Virus record (IMG/VR): IMGVR_UViG_3300005882_000371
Reading direction: 5' to 3' (one strand)
From: a virus
Length of the DNA: 8,170 bases
The notes below the pieces were generated by a model. The model ran no database searches and was not told the DNA's origin. It saw only the letters and a list, made by a program, of their open reading frames with translations. A program made the position numbers and the translations under genes. Below are positions 1-8,170 of the stretch, piece by piece. Positions within the stretch are counted from its first letter, which is position 1. Each line of letters opens with the position of its first letter.

Positions 1-99
1 GGAACTTCAGGATCACCGGCCACACCCGACCAAGGTTCATTTTCACCAGGTTCACGCGCAGTACCTGAAGAAACAAAATTCTGATACCTAAAACAAGCA
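1..99. repeat. Left copy of the exact 99-nt terminal overlap (identical to 8072..8170)
   Basis: Base-by-base comparison: ggaacttcaggatcaccggccacacccgaccaaggttcattttcaccaggttcacgcgcagtacctgaagaaacaaaattctgatacctaaaacaagca occurs at both ends. Confidence 0.97.
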
Positions 100-722
100 C
101 CAGAAGACTTTGAGCATTTAACCTGGGAATTAAGATCAGTACCGTGACCCGCTGCGCCTGGTTGCAACATAGTCGGGCTGACATATTCGCAACCGCCAGC
201 AGATACAACACCACCCAACTGAAAACCACCCTCTGGTAAATCTTCAGTAAAAACACCGTTCTCGTAAGTGCCTGTTACAGCAGTACCAACCCTTTTAACC
301 GTGCCAGTATCAGGGCAATCAGGGCCAACCGGACCACAAACCTCTGGATGCTGTTCAAGCCAAGTTGAAGTCTGAACCGAACATTCTTTTTTCTTAATCG
401 CAACGCCTCCCTGAGAACCTGAAGACGTTTCATAAATACCGTAATTAAGAGACTGAAGAGAACAATTAAACGCACCACTATAAGACGAACACCATGCACT
501 AAGAGCATCTGAACTTTTGTCACCGTACCCACCAATACTAAACGCCCATACAGAATAGAAATACCCCTCTTCACCGCTAGTATCCTCAATAGCAAATACG
601 GAACCAGCCCCAAAAAACGCCCCCAAAAACACCAACACAACAGCAATCTGATTCCCTGGATACCGCCAATTAAAGCCAGGTCTTAACCAGGGCTTTACCT
701 GGGAAAATAGAGATCTTTTCAT
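1..722 (-). CDS. 5' part (about codons 1-240) of a 515-aa pIII-like minor coat / adsorption protein; the gene continues across the circular junction into 8071..7246
   Basis: Missing from the ORF track because it runs off the left edge. ATG at 722..720 has GAGG 8 nt upstream. My translation: MKRSLFSQVKPWLRPGFNWRYPGNQIAVVLVFLGAFFGAGSVFA/IEDTSGEEGYFYSVWAFSIGGYGDKSSDALSAWCSSYSGAFNCSLQ...QVKCSKSSGACFRYQNFVSSGTAREPGENEPWSGVAGDPEV. It is in the same frame as the 282-aa ORF, whose first codon at 8094 equals nt 23 (722-23=699). The N-terminus looks like a signal peptide, followed by 8 Cys in about 190 aa. It sits directly after the major coat gene and terminator, as gIII does in Ff and orfU in CTXphi. 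Confidence 0.8.
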   Translation of the reverse strand, partial: MKRSLFSQVKPWLRPGFNWRYPGNQIAVVLVFLGAFFGAGSVFAIEDTSGEEGYFYSVWAFSIGGYGDKSSDALSAWCSSYSGAFNCSLQSLNYGIYETSSGSQGGVAIKKKECSVQTSTWLEQHPEVCGPVGPDCPDTGTVKRVGTAVTGTYENGVFTEDLPEGGFQLGGVVSAGGCEYVSPTMLQPGAAGHGTDLNSQVKCSKSSGACFRYQNFVSSGTAREPGENEPWSGVAGDPEV

Positions 723-1569: not shown

Positions 1570-1934
1570 TAAGAAGCCTTAGCCGGAGCAGGCTTTTTAA
1601 CCTGAGAAGCGAGATAGGAATCAAGCTGACCAACCTCACACACTTTCTTCATAGAAGCGGCGATTTTGCGATCATCAAGACCCAGACCCTTGTAACGATC
1701 CACTTGCATAAGATCAGACGGATCAAGAGCGTAAACACCTTCCAACATAGCAACGGGAGCACCTGAAACCGGATCAGATGGAGGCGTGAAAACAAACTCA
1801 GTCGGATACGGAGAAGAAGGAAAACGCACCCAACCTGTTTGCTCATGCATCGTGTACGGCTTGCCTGTTTTCTGACTTACACCAGAGCGGGTATCGATAA
1901 CGCTTGCATGAATTTCAATAACTAACTTTGCCAT
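1569..1934 (-). CDS. ssDNA-binding protein, gene V protein (G5P) family
   Basis: 121 aa. VIDTRSGVSQKTGKPYTMHEQTGWV closely parallels the Ff gene V protein segment TTRSGVSRQGKPYSLNEQLCYV (recalled from memory). It sits immediately after Rep and overlaps Rep's end by 13 nt. SD AAGGGG lies upstream. Confidence 0.88.
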   Translation of the reverse strand: MAKLVIEIHASVIDTRSGVSQKTGKPYTMHEQTGWVRFPSSPYPTEFVFTPPSDPVSGAPVAMLEGVYALDPSDLMQVDRYKGLGLDDRKIAASMKKVCEVGQLDSYLASQVKKPAPAKAS

Positions 1935-3073
1935 GATGAGGCCCCTTGATTGTTAACGTCTGGAGCCGACCAAGGTCCAGAATCAGTGATAGGTAAAGAT
2001 GCCCCGACAGCTTTTTCTAAGCGACGAGGGACAGCGAATTCATTACGAGAAATAAGAGCTTCGACGATCTGAGAATCAGTCATACCCTTGGATTGACGCA
2101 TAACGTTAATCAAAGGCCCGTAGCTTTCACGAGCACTCGATTCCATACGTTCATAACCAATTTTCACCTTGGTTTTGCGTTCTGTTTTGATAAGCCTAGG
2201 CTCAACATCTTTGTGCTTCTGAATCTCCTCTCTGAAGACCTCAAAAGCAGGATACGAACCCAAGAAATAGGAAGCCGGATCAGTCAGGATAAAGAGCGGT
2301 ATCTCCCGATCTTTTGAGTGTATTTCTACCTCCCATCGCGTCCAGCGACTGGAAGGATCACCCTGCTGTTTACCCTTTTCGTAAATCCGGCAAAGCTTGC
2401 CACTTTTACGACTGCCGACCTGAAAAGTCCGACCGCCTGTGTATTCGATATCGCGTTCAATTCCATATTCGTTTTTGACCAACTTACCGCCAGACTTGAA
2501 CCAATCATGATTAGGATTCACACCGCCTTTACGCATCTTGAATGCGCCCAGCATCCACTGCTCAAAGGCATAATCGCAGCTGTAACGACCCTCGTGATCG
2601 TCATACGCGAGATCGACACGGGTGATCTTGATCAGAGGCAAATACTTGATCTGGGAAAGCAGCTTTTCAGGATCAATCAACGCTGTACCTTCACCTGAAA
2701 ACGAGATGTAACAACCACCGTTTTTAGCCCCAGAAGCAGCAATACCAATGTGCGTACCGTTCAAGTACAAATCCCAGCTAGAGCGATAGCCAAACATCCC
2801 ACGACCACGTTCATACATCGTAAAAACTTCAGACCAAGTGTCGTAAGTCGTCCATTCCTGACCTGCAAAGAAATCCTTAGTGATCATCTGACAAAACGTA
2901 GTGACATTTTCCCGACAAGACTGATCTAAGAAATCAATATCAATAGCTGGCTGTGATGCGTCCCGATTCTTCAGGAACTGAGCAAAAGACTGTTTACCAG
3001 CAGCAGCCAAACGGCGGATGGGCTCAAGATCATCGGGGCAGAAAGTGAAGGAAATGTAATCAATGATCACCAT
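1922..3073 (-). CDS. Rolling-circle replication initiator, Rep_trans family (RstA of CTXphi / RepC of pT181 type)
   Basis: 383 aa. Recognisable Rep_trans-type blocks: N-terminal IDYISFTF, RVDLAYDD, GGRTFQVGSRKSGKLCRIYEKG and TRWEVEIH. A GGGGG SD lies about 6 nt upstream of the ATG. It heads the operon that is divergent from the repressor gene. Confidence 0.88.
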   Translation of the reverse strand: MVIIDYISFTFCPDDLEPIRRLAAAGKQSFAQFLKNRDASQPAIDIDFLDQSCRENVTTFCQMITKDFFAGQEWTTYDTWSEVFTMYERGRGMFGYRSSWDLYLNGTHIGIAASGAKNGGCYISFSGEGTALIDPEKLLSQIKYLPLIKITRVDLAYDDHEGRYSCDYAFEQWMLGAFKMRKGGVNPNHDWFKSGGKLVKNEYGIERDIEYTGGRTFQVGSRKSGKLCRIYEKGKQQGDPSSRWTRWEVEIHSKDREIPLFILTDPASYFLGSYPAFEVFREEIQKHKDVEPRLIKTERKTKVKIGYERMESSARESYGPLINVMRQSKGMTDSQIVEALISRNEFAVPRRLEKAVGASLPITDSGPWSAPDVNNQGASSWQS

Positions 3074-3281: not shown

Positions 3282-3356
3282 GCTTAGTTACAGCGATCCT
3301 AGAACCAGTTTTGGTTACTGTCAACCGATATTGTTACGTTAACAAAGGTGGTTACG
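3274..3356. promoter_or_regulatory. Divergent control region between the repressor gene and the replication operon, with a sigma70-like promoter for rep and iterated TGGTTAC motifs
   Basis: Minus strand: TTGACA (3324..3319), a 17-nt spacer, then TAGGAT (3301..3296). GTTAC occurs 4 times in direct orientation (3287, 3314, 3333, 3351) and once inverted (3274-3278). The full 7-mer TGGTTAC is at 3312-3318 and 3349-3355, and inverted at 3274-3280. The outer copies overlap the two divergent start codons. A small palindrome AACCA-N4-TGGTT lies at 3303-3316. Confidence 0.6.
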
Positions 3357-3704
3357 ATGAACTACGATATAAAAACACTACTTTCACAACTAAAAAAGGC
3401 CATAAATTCAATGAGATGGTTCGATAGCTACGTGGACGAACTCAAGGACAGGCTAAATTTGGAATCGGATTACCAAGTCGCTAAGTATCTGGAGGTATCA
3501 CGCCAATACTTAACAAAAGTGCGGAATGGACAGCCGCTAGGAAGGCAGCATTGCATACGGATAGCCAGAGCCTTGAGAAGAGACCCATTAGAAATCATTG
3601 CAACAGCAGAAGCCCAGAGAGAAAAAGACCCGGACCTAAAAGCCATATGGGTAAAACTGGCCAAAGAAAAGGGGAATACAGATAAGTGGCAATCGGTACA
3701 CTAA
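3357..3704 (+). CDS. HTH transcriptional repressor (RstR-like position and orientation), 115 aa from the ATG at 3357
   Basis: SD AGGTGG lies 6 nt upstream of the ATG at 3357. The track's start at 3348 is a GTG inside that SD region. The helix-turn-helix segment is DYQVAKYLEVSRQYLTKVRNGQ. It is transcribed divergently from rep, as rstR is in CTXphi. Confidence 0.8.
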   Translation: MNYDIKTLLSQLKKAINSMRWFDSYVDELKDRLNLESDYQVAKYLEVSRQYLTKVRNGQPLGRQHCIRIARALRRDPLEIIATAEAQREKDPDLKAIWVKLAKEKGNTDKWQSVH

Positions 3705-3805
3705 GACGAGTTTCAAGCGCGGGGGTTTGGAGCTTCGTAGACCCAGCAATACAGCGGGTTTCAAGGGAGTGGCAACCAATAGCCAGCACATAGCGTAATT
3801 TAAGT

Positions 3806-3833
3806 TTCCCCCCCTATTAGTACATGGGGGGAA
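3806..3833 (-). other. C6/G7 stem-loop; candidate plus-strand replication origin (nick-site hairpin)
   Basis: The minus strand reads TTCCCCCC-ATGTACTAATA-GGGGGG(G)AA, an 8-bp stem. The loop carries ACT-AATAG, resembling the f1 gpII site CTTT/AATAG and the pT181 RepC site ACTCT/AATAG, which also sits in a GC-rich hairpin loop. The structure is certain; the function is inferred. Confidence 0.45.
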
Positions 3834-4227
3834 CACCCCTCCCGAACCCCGTCAGACCGACACACAAAACACGTGACCTACGGCCACTTGCCGATCCCTG
3901 CGCACAACTTGCCCGACCGCTACGCGCCCGCCCCGCCCTAACGGGTAGGCTACGCCTATTGCTTACAATCGCTCTGCGACCGCCGAGAGCTACGGAATAA
4001 AACAACTGACCAACGGAACAAGGCCAAAAGGACGATAAAAGATGGCTTATCAGGGTCGGAGTTGGAGCAGAGCAAGAAAGGACTTCAGTGCGAACGCGGT
4101 ACTAGTGAAAACGTGGTACTGGGTGCGACGAGATAGAGAAGCCAAGGACAAGGTTACGGCCAATCAGCATAGAGCACCGATCAGCCGTGAGGTGTGGCCT
4201 ATCAACGGCTACGCCGCTAAAAACCCG

Positions 4228-4374
4228 CTATCTCCCACCGCATAAAGACAACGACTGAAAAACAAGATCATCATACTGACTAAACCTAGCCATCATATAA
4301 AAGACCATAACGATAGCAGTGGAACCGGCACCCATCGCAAACGGGGCTATAAACATCATACTTTTTTCAAACAT
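4228..4374 (-). CDS. Possible 48-aa membrane micro-protein, last ORF of the accessory operon
   Basis: SD AAGGAA lies 5 nt upstream of the ATG at 4374. My translation is MFEKSMMFIAPFAMGAGSTAIVMVFYMMARFSQYDDLVFQSLSLCGGR, with one hydrophobic helix. Below the ORF-track cutoff. Confidence 0.45.
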   Translation of the reverse strand: MFEKSMMFIAPFAMGAGSTAIVMVFYMMARFSQYDDLVFQSLSLCGGR

Positions 4375-4412
4375 AACAATTCCTTTTTTGTGACTGTCAC
4401 GTCTAGTGCGTA

Positions 4413-4529
4413 CTAATGAAACCGGATCATAACCTCATCAACCCAAACATAGCCTCTACGCCATGAATTATAATCAGACACCCTTTCAGCCATGATGACA
4501 AAAATATCAATCTTATCCGAACGACTCAT
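4413..4529 (-). CDS. Possible 38-aa micro-ORF coupled (ATGA overlap) to the XRE gene
   Basis: The ATG at 4529..4527 overlaps the XRE TGA stop at 4528..4526. My translation is MSRSDKIDIFVIMAERVSDYNSWRRGYVWVDEVMIRFH. I recognise no family. Confidence 0.4.
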   Translation of the reverse strand: MSRSDKIDIFVIMAERVSDYNSWRRGYVWVDEVMIRFH

Positions 4530-4744
4530 AAGTCAAATTCCTTTTGATCCTCATACGGTAGCTCTACAGACCACCCCTTAAGGCAAAGCCACCGGATCGC
4601 AAGCTCTGTGCGCTTCTCAATCGGCGATTCTCCCCGCTCCATCAAGCTGACCAGCTGGCGCGTTACTCCCAGATCCCGTGCAAATTCAGTTTGTGAAAGA
4701 CCCAAAATATCCTTTCGAGCCTTTTTCATGACAGCAGGAGTCAC
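4526..4744 (-). CDS. XRE-family helix-turn-helix protein, 72 aa (67 aa if it starts at the internal ATG at 4729)
   Basis: The classic XRE HTH is LSQTEFARDLGVTRQLVSLMERGE. The GTG start overlaps the upstream stop (GTGA), with GGTG 6 nt upstream. Confidence 0.85.
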   Translation of the reverse strand: MTPAVMKKARKDILGLSQTEFARDLGVTRQLVSLMERGESPIEKRTELAIRWLCLKGWSVELPYEDQKEFDL

Positions 4745-5031
4745 TTAACACACCGTGAATATTTCAATTTATTAAAACGATAACCGCCGAACGAAGACCA
4801 TTTATAAACGCTTCTCTTAAAATCACGCCCGCTGAACAAAAACCGATAAACAACAAGCCAGTAATCAGGGCTACAATCATCATCAAAAATCTCTGCATAC
4901 TCCGAAGGCATCAAACCCTTAGACTTAACACGCAACGCACGATACAGACGTTTCCATTTACTTTTTGCACTGAAATCCAACTCTAATTGCGTCATTTCCC
5001 TAATCCCTGTTCCGTTATTTGATGAAACCAT
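4741..5031 (-). CDS. Hypothetical basic protein, 96 aa (84 aa if it starts at the ATG at 4995), first gene of the accessory operon
   Basis: Lys/Arg-rich, with no family I recognise. The predicted -10 element overlaps the ATG at 5031. The second in-frame ATG at 4995 has GGGA 8 nt upstream and may be the true start. It is translationally coupled to the downstream XRE gene. Confidence 0.6.
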   Translation of the reverse strand: MVSSNNGTGIREMTQLELDFSAKSKWKRLYRALRVKSKGLMPSEYAEIFDDDCSPDYWLVVYRFLFSGRDFKRSVYKWSSFGGYRFNKLKYSRCVK

Positions 5032-5100
5032 TATGACAAACTATTGGTCATTTGTACACGCTTTTTGACTAATTATTTGTCATTGGTTTATGAATAATTC
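5025..5100. promoter_or_regulatory. Second control region: imperfect inverted repeat around candidate divergent promoters
   Basis: AAACCAttATGACAAA (5025-5040) is an inverted match to TTTGTCATTGGTTT (5076-5089), 14 nt with a 2-nt insertion. A third GGTCAT copy lies at about 5046-5051. Minus-strand promoter candidate: TGTACA (5058..5053), 17 nt, CATAAT (5035..5030). Plus-strand candidate: TTGACT (5065-5070), 18 nt, TATGAA (5089-5094). Confidence 0.4.
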
Positions 5101-5145
5101 GACTGCAGTGGAAATGAAAAAGACAAGAAATTCAAACAAGACTGG

Positions 5146-5253
5146 ATTACGAATAATGCATTTATGTAAAAGAAAAAGCCCGTACTATCAATAGGTTACG
5201 GGCTTCTTTTTACGTTGGGTCGGGGACCTACATAAACGCACATTATACGTAAT
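5146..5253. repeat. Imperfect 108-nt inverted repeat whose arms are dif-like (XerC/XerD-type) motifs; candidate ssDNA-folded attP and/or packaging signal
   Basis: Arm A, plus strand 5146-5172: ATTACGAATAA-TGCAT-TTATGTAAAAG. Arm B, minus strand 5253..5225: ATTACGTATAA-TGTGCGT-TTATGTAGGTC. The arms pair as 6+6+8 bp with one mismatch and an internal bubble exactly at the central region. Compared with E. coli dif (GGTGCGCATAA-TGTATA-TTATGTTAAAT), arm A matches 7/11 and 9/11 and arm B matches 7/11 and 6/11. Confidence 0.6.
5168..5212. terminator. Bidirectional rho-independent terminator at the end of the morphogenesis operon
   Basis: A 9-bp GC-cored stem pairs AAGCCCGTA (5176-5184) with TACGGGCTT (5197-5205), with further pairing possible in the loop (CTAT/ATAG). 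It is followed by CTTTTT on the plus strand and TTTCTTTT on the minus strand. Confidence 0.75.
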
Positions 5254-5295
5254 TTGATATTCACGAAAACAAAGGGCTCTCAGGTATGTAAGCAA

Positions 5296-5406: not shown

Positions 5407-5499
5407 CTAAACATTCTCCAAACAGTTAACGGGCAAAGCCCGTACCCAGACCGCATACCATCCCCAAAATCGTTATGACAATTTGTGCCGAGGAATTAA

Positions 5500-6921
5500 C
5501 TACATGAACTTGTTAGCAGGATTACCAGGTAAAGGTTTAACGTCCGACACTGTGACTGTGGGCGCGGGTATCGCCCCAGGCTTCCCCCCGCGTCCTCGTC
5601 TCAGTTCCTGGGCGTGAAGATGACGGACCATGACGGACCAATCACCTTTGTAGAGCAATAAACCCGATGGTGAGTAATGTTCCTGAAAACCATAAGAACG
5701 TACTTCATCCTGGAAGAATCGCGTTACCAGGGAACCGCCCTGGTAAACGTTGATTGAATACTTAACCTCGCCGCTGTTACTCATAATCAGAGCCGCACCT
5801 AAACGAACCAGGTAACCAGGATCAGTGAAATATGCCTGGAAGTGATCAGCCGGTGATTTCATATATGACGCCAACGGTTGAGGTTCTACGTTACCAGGAA
5901 CGTAAGCAACGTTACTCGGCCCCGCCGATCCTGGTGGTGTTAAGGTGTTAAATTCCCCAGCAAGGTCAGTCTTAGCAATCCGGACACGATCAACATTCCG
6001 AGAATTATCAGGGGAACCCTGATCAGGATTTTTAGGGTCTTCTTTAGAACTGGAGCCAACCATCCCAGCAATACCCGCATCGGACTCAATAACTTTCGAA
6101 AGACTGTTTGCAAAGAACCCAAGCGTTGCCAGTAGGAGGACTCCATACATCGCCAAACGAGGGTCTCGCCATAAAGAGCGAGTTTCTGACGTACCTTTAG
6201 CTTTTCCGGTTTTGGTCGATTGGTAGCAGTCGAAGACGCGGGTGTCCGCCTTGTATTTCTTGGGTGAACCGAGATAGTGCGATGCAGACTTGCCGTTGTT
6301 TTCTGGGTCATGAGAGAACTCCTTCCAGGATGTAGCCCAGGACTTGAGAAAAGCCCCAAGTCCGCGATGACGGTATGCAACCTCTACAACCTGGCGAATT
6401 TCGGGATGGATTTTAGCGATGTTCGGCGTACACAGGTAAATATCCCAGTTGTAGTGCCGGTGCATGTCAAAAGCTTCCTCTACGGTCTCAGGGCGTTCGG
6501 TACTACCATCCCACCACTGATACCGTGTATCGGCCTCTCTCGACTGCTGAAGCTGCTCTGAGGGCAATGGATCACCCTCAGCGTCAGTAAGGGTTAAATC
6601 CAGTTTAGAGAGGTCTCTAAACCGGGTCTTGTTGTACACCTTCTGTGCTTCATCAATGATGATGAGCGCACCCGGTGGGGCCCAATGAAAAAACCGGGCT
6701 ATCGTTTCGAAGCCGGCCTTTTTATCAGGCTCGATATACATAATCTGTGCATCATCCGGTAACCGAATGTCCATCGCCTCCTCTATCTTTCTAGGATCGT
6801 TAAAGCCGCGGATATTGGTTACAACGGTACGTCCTTTCTCGAGCGCTGGAATCGCTACACGCTCCAGGACACCGAAAGACTTAAAAGACCCTGGCGGGCC
6901 GTGATGAATACAACCTGTCAT
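5500..6921 (-). CDS. zot: Zot / pI-family inovirus assembly ATPase, 473 aa
   Basis: IHHGPPGSFKS is a Walker A with an aromatic residue, as in V. cholerae Zot IHHGAPGSYKT. Other matches are ITNIRGFN, LIIIDEAQ (Walker B) and AFDMHRHYNWDIYLCTPNIAKIH (compare Zot AFDMHRHHGWDICLTTPNIAKVH, from memory). One TM helix lies at about aa 256-274, followed by a ~200-aa C-terminal domain. SD GGGAGA lies 6 nt upstream of the ATG. Confidence 0.95.
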   Translation of the reverse strand: MTGCIHHGPPGSFKSFGVLERVAIPALEKGRTVVTNIRGFNDPRKIEEAMDIRLPDDAQIMYIEPDKKAGFETIARFFHWAPPGALIIIDEAQKVYNKTRFRDLSKLDLTLTDAEGDPLPSEQLQQSREADTRYQWWDGSTERPETVEEAFDMHRHYNWDIYLCTPNIAKIHPEIRQVVEVAYRHRGLGAFLKSWATSWKEFSHDPENNGKSASHYLGSPKKYKADTRVFDCYQSTKTGKAKGTSETRSLWRDPRLAMYGVLLLATLGFFANSLSKVIESDAGIAGMVGSSSKEDPKNPDQGSPDNSRNVDRVRIAKTDLAGEFNTLTPPGSAGPSNVAYVPGNVEPQPLASYMKSPADHFQAYFTDPGYLVRLGAALIMSNSGEVKYSINVYQGGSLVTRFFQDEVRSYGFQEHYSPSGLLLYKGDWSVMVRHLHAQELRRGRGGKPGAIPAPTVTVSDVKPLPGNPANKFM

Positions 6922-6932
6922 GAGGTATCTCC

Positions 6933-7253
6933 CTATACCATGTCGAGAATGAAGCGAGTAACAAAGGCGTTAAGCAGTATGTTGATGGCTTCAGGAAAGT
7001 TGTACCGAGTGGCAACCCCTAAAAGATTGGAGTCAAGACTCCCCCACGCCTGGTTAATTACATCGGAGATATTCAGCTGATCGATCATTGCCTGGGCCAC
7101 GCCCCAAGCAAAGCCAATCGCCGCGATCTTCAACTTAAACCACCAGGTGACAACCCATACCATCATCGATGCAAACATCTCATGGATGAAGTTGTAAGAC
7201 TCAGTTGTCATGAAGTCATAAACCCCTTGGATAGCTTCTAAAATCTCACCCAC
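6933..7253 (-). CDS. pVI / Ace-like minor coat protein, 106 aa
   Basis: The GTG start has AGGAGGG 7 nt upstream and overlaps the pIII-like stop by 8 nt. A hydrophobic core reads MMVWVVTWWFKLKIAAIGFAWGVA. The C-terminal LLNAFVTRFILDMV resembles the end of CTXphi Ace (LQALMTRFALRAL, from memory). It occupies the canonical slot between pIII and pI. Confidence 0.8.
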   Translation of the reverse strand: MGEILEAIQGVYDFMTTESYNFIHEMFASMMVWVVTWWFKLKIAAIGFAWGVAQAMIDQLNISDVINQAWGSLDSNLLGVATRYNFPEAINILLNAFVTRFILDMV

Positions 7254-8170
7254 GAGACGACCCTCCTAACACAATATAAGCCGCCAAAATCCCAGCAACA
7301 GCCAGGACAAGCGCACCAAAATTAAACTGATCTAAATACGGAACCCATTTACTGAAACCAATATCACCGGAAACCCCTTTAAGCGTAATCTCATTACTCT
7401 GAATTGTGCCGCCACCATTAACACCGAAATTAAACTTCTGTTTAACCTGGTCTTTAATGTCGTCAAACAGTTCCTGGTACTCGTCTCGGGCTTCATTCAT
7501 TTCGGTCATACCTGACGCGAATTCACCGCCGTCACCCTTATCAAATTCACCGATACACCGATCCATCAAAGGATTCGTATCACAGGTTTCCTCTTCCTGT
7601 TCTTCCCTGGCGTTATCGTCTCCCTGGACCGGTCCTTCTTCCCTGGTCTCGCCGGTCTTGGTTCCGTCCGAAGAAAAATCTTCGACAGTCCTGGTCTGTT
7701 GGGTAGATGTACCACCACCCGTAGCCGTGACAGTCACGCGATTATTACTACGGTCGATGTTGTAGACAGTCTGGGGATGCTGGGTATAGGAAATATTGTT
7801 GGTAGTCTCGACAGTTTTCGAACCATCAGCATTAGTTGTAGTGACTGTTGTTTGGGTATCCGTACGAGTTATGCCGTCCGATCGGGTGACCGTAGTGACA
7901 TCATCCTGGGATTGAACAACAGAACCATCCCCCCGCGTTTCCGTCGTGGTTGTGGTTTGTGTGGTTTGAGTAGTATCACCGACTTGTTCTGTAATGGGAT
8001 CGGTAGAAGTAGTAGATGTACGGCTTTCGCGTGTGTCGGTCGATGCTTCTGTAGATTCATTCGGAACCTCTGGAACTTCAGGATCACCGGCCACACCCGA
8101 CCAAGGTTCATTTTCACCAGGTTCACGCGCAGTACCTGAAGAAACAAAATTCTGATACCTAAAACAAGCA
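7246..8170 (-). CDS. 3' part of the 515-aa pIII-like adsorption protein (the frame stays open to the right window edge; 8072..8170 duplicates 1..99)
   Basis: The track's 282-aa ORF begins at an internal GTG (8094), but the frame has no stop up to 8170 and continues into 1..722 after wrapping. A Thr/Asp/Gln-rich low-complexity region of about 155 aa comes first. A C-terminal domain follows (CDTNPLMDRCIGEF...) and ends in the membrane anchor ALVLAVAGILAAYIVLGG plus SSRG. Confidence 0.85.
   Translation of the reverse strand, partial: ACFRYQNFVSSGTAREPGENEPWSGVAGDPEVPEVPNESTEASTDTRESRTSTTSTDPITEQVGDTTQTTQTTTTTETRGDGSVVQSQDDVTTVTRSDGITRTDTQTTVTTTNADGSKTVETTNNISYTQHPQTVYNIDRSNNRVTVTATGGGTSTQQTRTVEDFSSDGTKTGETREEGPVQGDDNAREEQEEETCDTNPLMDRCIGEFDKGDGGEFASGMTEMNEARDEYQELFDDIKDQVKQKFNFGVNGGGTIQSNEITLKGVSGDIGFSKWVPYLDQFNFGALVLAVAGILAAYIVLGGSSRG
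8072..8170. repeat. Right copy of the exact 99-nt terminal overlap (identical to 1..99)
   Basis: Same comparison as the left copy. The overlap lies inside an open reading frame, which fits a circularisation artefact rather than a biological terminal repeat. Confidence 0.97.

Follow-up and report, generated by a model that had tools for sequence, protein, structure and literature searches.

A candidate CTXphi-like Xer attachment site downstream of zot in the complete genome of an integrase-less inovirus

Described Xer-dependent systems and the phage genome

CTXphi enters the chromosome through a pair of dif-like sequences, attP1 with a 12-bp centre and attP2 with a 5-7 bp centre, which lie 90 bp apart (PMC3442271, PMC4246890). 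The site folds in the (+) single-stranded DNA, with XerC as the sole strand-exchanging recombinase and the resulting junction left to replication to resolve (PMC3442271; PMC4246890), the forked hairpin of attP(+) being that of Val et al. 2005 in the form in which PMC3442271 and PMC4246890 relay it. When we scanned the RS1-CTX prophage in NC_015209, the coding strand read AGTGCGTATTA (AGTGCG(C/T)ATTA), 12 nt and TTATGTTGAGG, followed after an 89-nt gap by the inverted AATGCGTATTA, 7 nt and TTATGTTACGG, with a right prophage junction of AGTGCGTATTA/TGTATG TTATGTTAAAT (here and below, a slash marks the junction); these results agree with the published description of attP1 and attP2 (PMC3442271, PMC4246890). 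VGJphi uses a single 29-bp double-stranded attP with a 7-bp centre, recombined by XerC only (PMC4246890), and the host Xer recombinases are also used by TLCphi and XafT-dependent IMEXs and at 17-bp arm-only dif-like attP sites (PMC6744903, PMC12715192).

The window analysed here, the whole 8,170-nt stretch of IMG/VR record IMGVR_UViG_3300005882_000371, is a circularly closed contig whose first 99 nt are repeated at its end (1-99 = 8072-8170), that is, a complete circular inovirus genome of ~8071 nt. In inoviruses, coding-strand orientation and T-richness are used to infer the packaged (+) strand. All morphogenesis and replication genes of this genome lie on the minus strand, and because that strand is T-rich and carries all the morphogenesis genes we take it to be the packaged one. 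The genes, with orf73, an ssDNA-binding protein gene, orf105 and a coat-like gene also on the minus strand, are as follows.

722..1 joined to 8071..7246, minus strand: pIII-like gene, 515 aa, split across the contig ends by linearisation
7253..6933, minus strand: DUF2523/pVI-like gene
5500..6921, minus strand: zot, encoding the pI-like assembly ATPase, last large gene of the morphogenesis operon (Pfam Zot, E = 6.5e-38)
5031..4526, minus strand: orf96 together with the gene for a 72-aa HTH protein
4741-5031, minus strand: orf96 itself, first gene downstream of the candidate attP
3348..3704, plus strand: HTH repressor-like gene (rstR analogue), divergent, beside the replication module (HTH_3; phrog_4441 E = 1e-18, phrog_638 E = 1e-15)
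1922..3073, minus strand: Rep_trans rolling-circle initiator (RstA analogue; E = 2.1e-23)

The listed 282-aa ORF at 7246-8094 is merely the C-terminal part of the pIII-like gene. A Pontibacterium granulatum prophage encodes a pIII with 65% identity to this part of the protein, and on such sequence grounds the host is probably a marine Oceanospirillales-like bacterium and not a Vibrio. The Rep_trans protein is 36% identical to the replication protein of Vibrio phage VCY, and the divergent rstR-like gene suggests a temperate lifestyle. Annotation of the complete circle bore out the statement of the first-pass annotation that no recombinase is encoded: no recombinase or integrase domain was found in the whole circle, in which no long ORF was left unassigned, and the genome holds no toxin genes.

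Neither whole-window megablast nor intergenic blastn produced a meaningful DNA match among 50,697 phage records, exact-protein look-ups for Zot and Rep returned nothing on record, and a single-protein Zot scan of genome contigs retrieved no close relative; the nearest proteins in the searched collections are 48% (Zot) and 55% (Rep) identical. orf96 has no Pfam or PHROG match and found itself alone among 5.8 billion proteins, so that the module neighbouring the candidate attP offers no route to integrated copies.

Several other features of the regulatory region were recorded. Immediately upstream of the start of orf96, an 18-nt imperfect palindrome (5033-5050/5066-5083, ATGACAAACTATTGGTCA / TGACTAATTATTTGTCAT) shares bases with a promoter-like site, and ATGACAA-type boxes occur three times (4490-4502, 5028-5040 and 5467-5481); one of the two HTH proteins may use palindrome and boxes as its operators. 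The 820-nt stretch that separates the 72-aa HTH gene from the rstR-like gene (3705-4525) has a higher G+C (0.53-0.55), lacks a long ORF, holds only small ones (for example a hydrophobic 48-aa ORF at 4228-4374) and gave nothing in Rfam. The plus-strand origin may lie within it.

Sequence and predicted fold of the dif-like element

The element under study occupies 108 nt (5146-5253) in the 468-nt intergenic region that follows zot, 247 nt downstream of that gene, and consists of two inverted dif-like arms around a 52-nt loop. Its parts are given below.

5146..5172, plus strand: bottom arm (A), made of ATTACGAATAA (XerC-like), the 5-nt centre TGCAT and TTATGTAAAAG (XerD-like)
5243..5253, minus strand: XerC-like half of the top arm (B), ATTACGTATAA, 7/11 to E. 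coli dif
5236..5242, minus strand: central (overlap) region of the top arm, TGTGCGT, 7 nt
5225..5235, minus strand: XerD-like half of the top arm, TTATGTAGGTC, 6/11 to E. coli dif
5218..5228, no strand assigned: side hairpin GGTC-GGG-GACC, which makes the fork in minimum-energy folds and overlaps the outer part of the top XerD-like arm
5170..5211, no strand assigned: tip hairpin, with a 9-bp GC-rich stem (5176-5184/5197-5205), a 12-nt loop and flanking A-runs and T-runs

Both arms, 5146-5172 on the plus strand and 5253..5225 on the minus strand, read exactly as the first-pass annotation had given them, and its counts of agreement with E. coli dif were reproduced, including 7/11 for the XerC-like and 9/11 for the XerD-like half of arm A, E. 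coli being a reference from which the host's own dif may differ. Direct reading also confirmed the spacer lengths that had been entered there as a caveat: at 7 and 5 nt, neither arm is a canonical 6-bp-spaced site as double strand. Since a 7-bp spacer is tolerated in VGJphi, non-6-nt spacing is a weaker criterion for the window than for CTXphi. The first three bases of TGTGCGT are the TGT with which the canonical TGTATA dif centre begins, a type of centre seen beside relatives. The XerD side (bottom strand ATGCA) has no match to the TGTATA centres beside relatives, from which the host's own centre may differ.

Folded as single-stranded DNA with DNA parameters, the check that had been proposed for it, the minus strand of 5135-5265 gave a forked hairpin of -24.1 kcal/mol against -8.5 +/- 2.3 for shuffled sequences (z = -6.9), and none of 200 shuffles was as stable; the plus strand reached -22.6 kcal/mol (z = -4.8). 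Arm A supplies the complementary strand of the stem on the packaged strand. In the predicted fold the XerC-like arms form the stem base with 10 of 11 positions paired, ATTACG and ATAA enclosing one T.T mismatch, while the XerD-like arms pair at their inner bases only (TTTATGT / TTATGTA) and leave the outer four positions unpaired. Beyond them the stem divides into the small GGTC/GACC hairpin and the 9-bp GC-rich tip hairpin, and an equivalent side hairpin appears in the folds of three related loci (L098, L051 and L052). An asymmetric central bubble had been claimed for this structure. Its 7-over-5 asymmetry is real, but most of the centre pairs in the minimum-energy fold, where TGCGT lies opposite ATGCA with one G.T among the pairs; all that remains of the bubble is a 2-nt bulge (TG) on the coding strand, adjoining the XerC-like arm. 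The modelled stem of the packaged strand would rebuild a XerC arm, at its base, and a XerD arm on either side of an imperfect centre.

The 9-bp tip hairpin at 5176-5205 is present as originally described and is terminator-like in both directions. As RNA it folds at -19.3 kcal/mol and is followed on the coding strand by UUUUUCUUUU, a U-run; a consensus terminator scan passed over it, its 12-nt loop being longer than 8 nt. Equivalent GC-rich hairpins with T-runs lie inside the loops of L098, L051 and L034. The earlier caveat that the hairpin doubles as a terminator is thus probably right: on the modelled RNA energy and the U-run, the tip hairpin is probably also the intrinsic terminator of the zot operon, which is compatible with an attP role and raises no conflict with it.

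Ff phages place their packaging-signal hairpin in the intergenic region, after the morphogenesis genes, which is also the position of the element described here. Together with the terminator-like tip hairpin, and with Xer binding to the element being a prediction, this position would suit a reading in which the element is a structural signal only, be it zot-operon terminator, packaging signal or minus-strand origin, and its resemblance to dif is fortuitous. We consider that very improbable. A terminator or packaging hairpin needs no CG.ATAA ... TTATGT cores, yet the pattern CG.ATAA-N5-12-TTATGT, for which a first-order Markov model predicts 0.0145 occurrences per window with both strands counted, is present as an inverted pair that arose in 0 of 1450 simulated windows. 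Relatives with different loops carry these cores in their hairpins too, and in two relatives the cores are the actual dif crossover points (next section). A genome-wide scan found no other dif-like sequence elsewhere in the genome, and Rfam gave no match. To our knowledge, the Ff packaging signal carries no dif-like cores and Ff phages never integrate.

Relatives with hairpin pairs, dif junctions and other lysogeny modules

Alignment of Zot against viral and genome collections yielded 93 related loci, and at least 17 distinct Zot-relative loci have a near-canonical dif next to them. A single regular expression recovers both CTXphi attP1/attP2 and the pair in the window; the inverted dif-like pair that it describes was matched only in the window, L051, L052/L005, L032/L034/L079, L096, L098, CTXphi and one doubtful further case. 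XerC-like arms stand at the stem base in all the real cases, and the top-arm spacers of the relatives measure 8-13 nt, with the inverted partner kept.

The closest Rep relative (55% identity), L098, is a circular contig of 6929 nt. Just after zot it reads ACTTCGCATAA TAACGTT TTATGTTAGGG and then, inverted, ACTTCGCATAA TGTAATT TTATGTGTAAA, and its loop contains motifs homologous to those of the window (CCGACC, AGAAGYCCGT and ACGGGCTT). It folds into the same fork at -25.7 kcal/mol (z = -6.6).

Two relatives give the crossover position. L051, in a Motiliproteus MAG, encodes a full-length Zot 44% identical to that of the window and consists of two identical tandem prophage copies with a period of 6989 nt. 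The intact site between the copies reads ACTGCGCATAA TTGAACCGCA TTATGGTATCG, a terminator-like hairpin and the inverted ACTACGCATAA CGCCCA TTATGGATAAA, the end of the array is ACTGCGCATAA/TGTATA TTATGTTAAAT, a canonical dif, and identity between the two registers breaks after ACTGCGCATAAT. L079 is a prophage of Methylovulum miyakonense HT12. On the left the prophage starts with GACTTCGCATAA/TTACCCGT, beyond which come a hairpin and the inverted arm; on the right, after zot, it finishes with GACTTCGCATAA/TGCATA TTATGTAAAAT. Two contigs of free phage, L034 and L032, hold the uncut site, which equals the right-end flank of L079 plus its left-end interior. Both prophages have the CTX-type integration topology, with the crossover at the border between XerC arm and centre of the coding-strand arm. 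Two findings had been named in the first-pass annotation as speaking against its CTXphi-style reading, namely junctions that map elsewhere and relatives devoid of dif-adjacent prophages, and neither was encountered.

The junctions of L051 and L079 are equally compatible with double-stranded recombination of the coding-strand arm. For the window this would mean that the 29-bp coding-strand arm alone (ATTACGTATAA TGTGCGT TTATGTAGGTC, 11+7+11) is the attP in the double-stranded replicative form, as in VGJphi, with XerC performing the sole strand exchange and the second arm just forming the terminator or hairpin. Arm B indeed matches the VGJphi 11+7+11 format exactly (PMC4246890). Its XerD half is, however, poor at 6/11, the better half (9/11) lies on arm A, and only the folded stem unites the two; a single ~29-bp double-stranded site with good XerC and XerD arms is not what the window contains. 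Relatives also keep the inverted partner though their top spacers are too long for a double-stranded site, and their XerC-like arms always stand at the stem base, as in CTXphi. We therefore regard a VGJphi-type route as unlikely and favour the folded, CTXphi-like site.

Additional sequences were seen at both loci. At the inter-copy junction of L051 (6246-6575), a second terminator-like hairpin and a bottom-arm-like ACCTATAATCTGCGTTATGCGAAGTT follow a small lysine-rich ORF and could be a half-site that was duplicated or captured. In L079, the DNA immediately beyond the left prophage end (4080-4164) resembles the zot-distal end of the free phage L034. This similarity suggests that the left flank is the remnant of an earlier element and that the array at that dif is one of heterologous IMEXs.

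Exchange of whole lysogeny modules is also visible among these phages. The structural-gene relatives closest to the window carry tyrosine integrases and lack the dif-like pair, the integrase loci being as follows.

928-1911 in L003 (Pontibacterium)
12701-13750 in L004 (Marinobacterium)
1275-2243 in L100
4368-5366 in L190

smpB lies in the same locus as the integrase in L003, L004 and L100, and the L190 integrase lies by different host genes. No dif-like pair was found in the closest Zot relatives L002, L003, L004, L049, L189 and L190, several of which have integrases. As integrase-bearing relatives lack the pair that the window has, the lysogeny module is exchangeable, with the window carrying its Xer version; such exchange has already been described for Vibrio inoviruses (PMC12715192).

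A third arrangement is found in L052, a Neptuniibacter pectenicola prophage whose Zot and Rep are both 44% identical to those of the window. Here the inverted pair is intact after zot, inside the prophage, and the borders read ATTTAACATAA TATATA/TTGCTCTGTTC, with a full dif 2.4 kb further on in opposite orientation. The border site is a 17-bp dif-like sequence, of XerD arm and centre only and likewise in opposite orientation (coordinates noted in L052: 5093-5124, 11412-11540, 13389-13841 and 13988-14015). The reading that suits these sequences best is a single phage that entered through a separate, 17-bp arm-only dif-like site. Interpretations of L052 as two tandem elements and as a XerD-side crossover at the hairpin were both rejected, each misfitting the junctions. 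The dif-adjacent terminal ORF of L052 has a homologue beside dif in L099 (coordinates noted: 10370-10729 and 10893-10920) and a faint match to DUF3653, the XafT family (E = 0.044). The window has no homologue of this L052/L099 ORF, and neither orf96 nor the 72-aa HTH protein matched DUF3653 even at E <= 10. Possibly L052 has two sites related to Xer, or can integrate in two ways.

Because the L052 pair is intact within an integrated prophage, carrying a pair is no proof of its use. This gives some footing to the view that the attP of the window is decayed or unused, the phage now being episomal or entering by an unrecognised route, as do the recovery of the free circular form alone and the arms of the window, which lie further from consensus than those of L098 and L051 (C to T/A in the XerC arm; 6/11 in the XerD arm). 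Against decay, the genome offers neither a recombinase nor another dif-like site to use instead, the stem is well preserved (XerC arms 10/11, z = -6.9), and the XerC arm of CTXphi shows the same C-to-T deviation, yet is functional. Moreover, a dif-like site with exactly ATTACGTATAA occurs elsewhere, the viral contig L141 bearing the perfect dif-like site ATTACGTATAA TGTATA TTATGTTAAAT. Decay of the site is accordingly improbable in our judgement, and we retain the folded Xer attP as the preferred reading.

The L141 site spans 1932-1959 of a 4.5-kb IMG/VR contig with a Rep_trans relative. Perfect XerD arms together with XerC arms of the form ATTACG[C/T]ATAA occur in L141, L173 (5741-5768), L184/L186 and L123/L137/L145/L180. 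The XerD arm was 11/11 in 16 of the 76 pattern matches, for which the pattern demanded just 6 of 11 bases.

Proposed integration mechanism and comparison with known systems

We propose that the element is a CTXphi-like attP that folds in the single strand and is integrated at dif by host XerC/XerD, a reading to which we assign a probability of about 0.72; that it is an Xer-dependent attP of some form is highly probable. The CTXphi-style XerCD interpretation made in the first-pass annotation is supported by the shared layout with CTXphi, by the homologous L098 hairpin and by the dif junctions of L051 and L079. Architecture, homology and relatives' junctions back it at the level of sequence, and for the window phage itself it is a prediction.

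On this CTXphi-like mechanism, the packaged strand, the minus strand of the window, would fold its two inverted dif-like arms into the forked hairpin, with the stem ordered from the XerC-like arms at the base through the 7-over-5-nt centre and the inner XerD-like TTATGTA to the fork. XerC and XerD would bind the folded stem as though it were dif. XerC would then cut directly 3' of ATTACGTATAA, between 5243 and 5242 on the minus strand, and swap this strand with dif; the position is placed there because the crossover lies at the XerC-arm/centre border in L051 and L079. The TGT after the cut would match the canonical TGTATA centre, the second exchange would be blocked because there is no homology on the XerD side, and replication would turn the junction into a prophage. 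At attL, the host XerC arm would be followed by TGTGCGT TTATGTAGGTC, the hairpin and the remaining phage, so that the sequence after the host arm is predicted to read TGTGCGTTTATGTAGGTCCCCGACC. At attR, just after zot, GAATATCAA ATTACGTATAA would be joined to the host centre and host XerD arm, giving the predicted phage end CGTGAATATCAAATTACGTATAA, then a 6-nt centre and TTATGTTAAAT-like bases.

The phage, viral, genome and metagenome collections searched contained neither an integrated copy nor a close relative of the window phage. The loop motif TTATGT..CGACC..AGAAGYCCGT had 0 matches in viral contigs and 10 chance matches in metagenome contigs, none in a dif-like context.

The analysis puts forward a lysogeny mechanism for an uncultured, integrase-less filamentous phage of marine type, with exact predicted prophage junctions. 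It adds sequence-level evidence for the two-arm hairpin attP design outside Vibrio, with crossovers mapped in Motiliproteus and Methylovulum prophages, and shows that phages sharing structural genes swap their means of lysogeny, be it a hairpin attP, an arm-only dif site or an smpB-located integrase, which is of use in drawing prophage borders and finding IMEX arrays. More speculatively, and as a conjecture that we consider less likely than not, the hairpin Xer attP could be no peculiarity of the cholera phage but an old and widely shared module of gammaproteobacterial inoviruses (Oceanospirillales-like and Methylococcales hosts) that keeps the operon terminator within its loop, the window perhaps being a minimal form (52-nt loop, near-paired 7/5 centre) that could work both as ssDNA and as dsDNA.

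Compared with the described systems, the window is like Ff phages (M13/f1) in having a long imperfect hairpin right after the morphogenesis genes on the packaged strand. With TLCphi and the XafT-dependent IMEXs it shares the exploitation of host Xer at dif, as predicted for the window, and elements of that kind occur among its relatives (L052, L099); its site differs in having both arms, duplicated and inverted. The likeness to VGJphi lies in the 11+7+11 format of arm B and in a XerC-dependent dif integration that would leave identical prophage ends, whereas arm B of the window has a weak XerD half (6/11) and a second site, in inverted orientation, with which it pairs.

The closest correspondence is with CTXphi. 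Both are integrase-less inoviruses with an inverted dif-like pair after the last late gene and before the regulatory/replication module, in which the XerC-like arms stand at the stem base and the coding-strand arm, in the order XerC-centre-XerD, comes first. They further share non-6-nt spacers in both arms, a forked hairpin, a C-to-T change in the XerC arm and dif homology confined to the bases by the XerC side (TGT), the last on the assumption that the dif of the window's host is TGTATA-like. Unlike CTXphi, the window is compact, with a 52-nt loop in place of 89-90 nt and spacers of 7 and 5 in place of 12 and 7 nt, its centre is almost fully paired where CTXphi has a large bubble, and its loop holds a terminator-like hairpin and the genome lacks toxin genes. 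Its proteins are distant (Zot about 37%, Rep about 26%), its probable host is a marine Oceanospirillales and not Vibrio, and it is known from sequence alone. The known mechanism is left unchanged by these differences, and the window would represent a CTX-type IMEX attP set apart by being compact, non-Vibrio and inclusive of an operon terminator.
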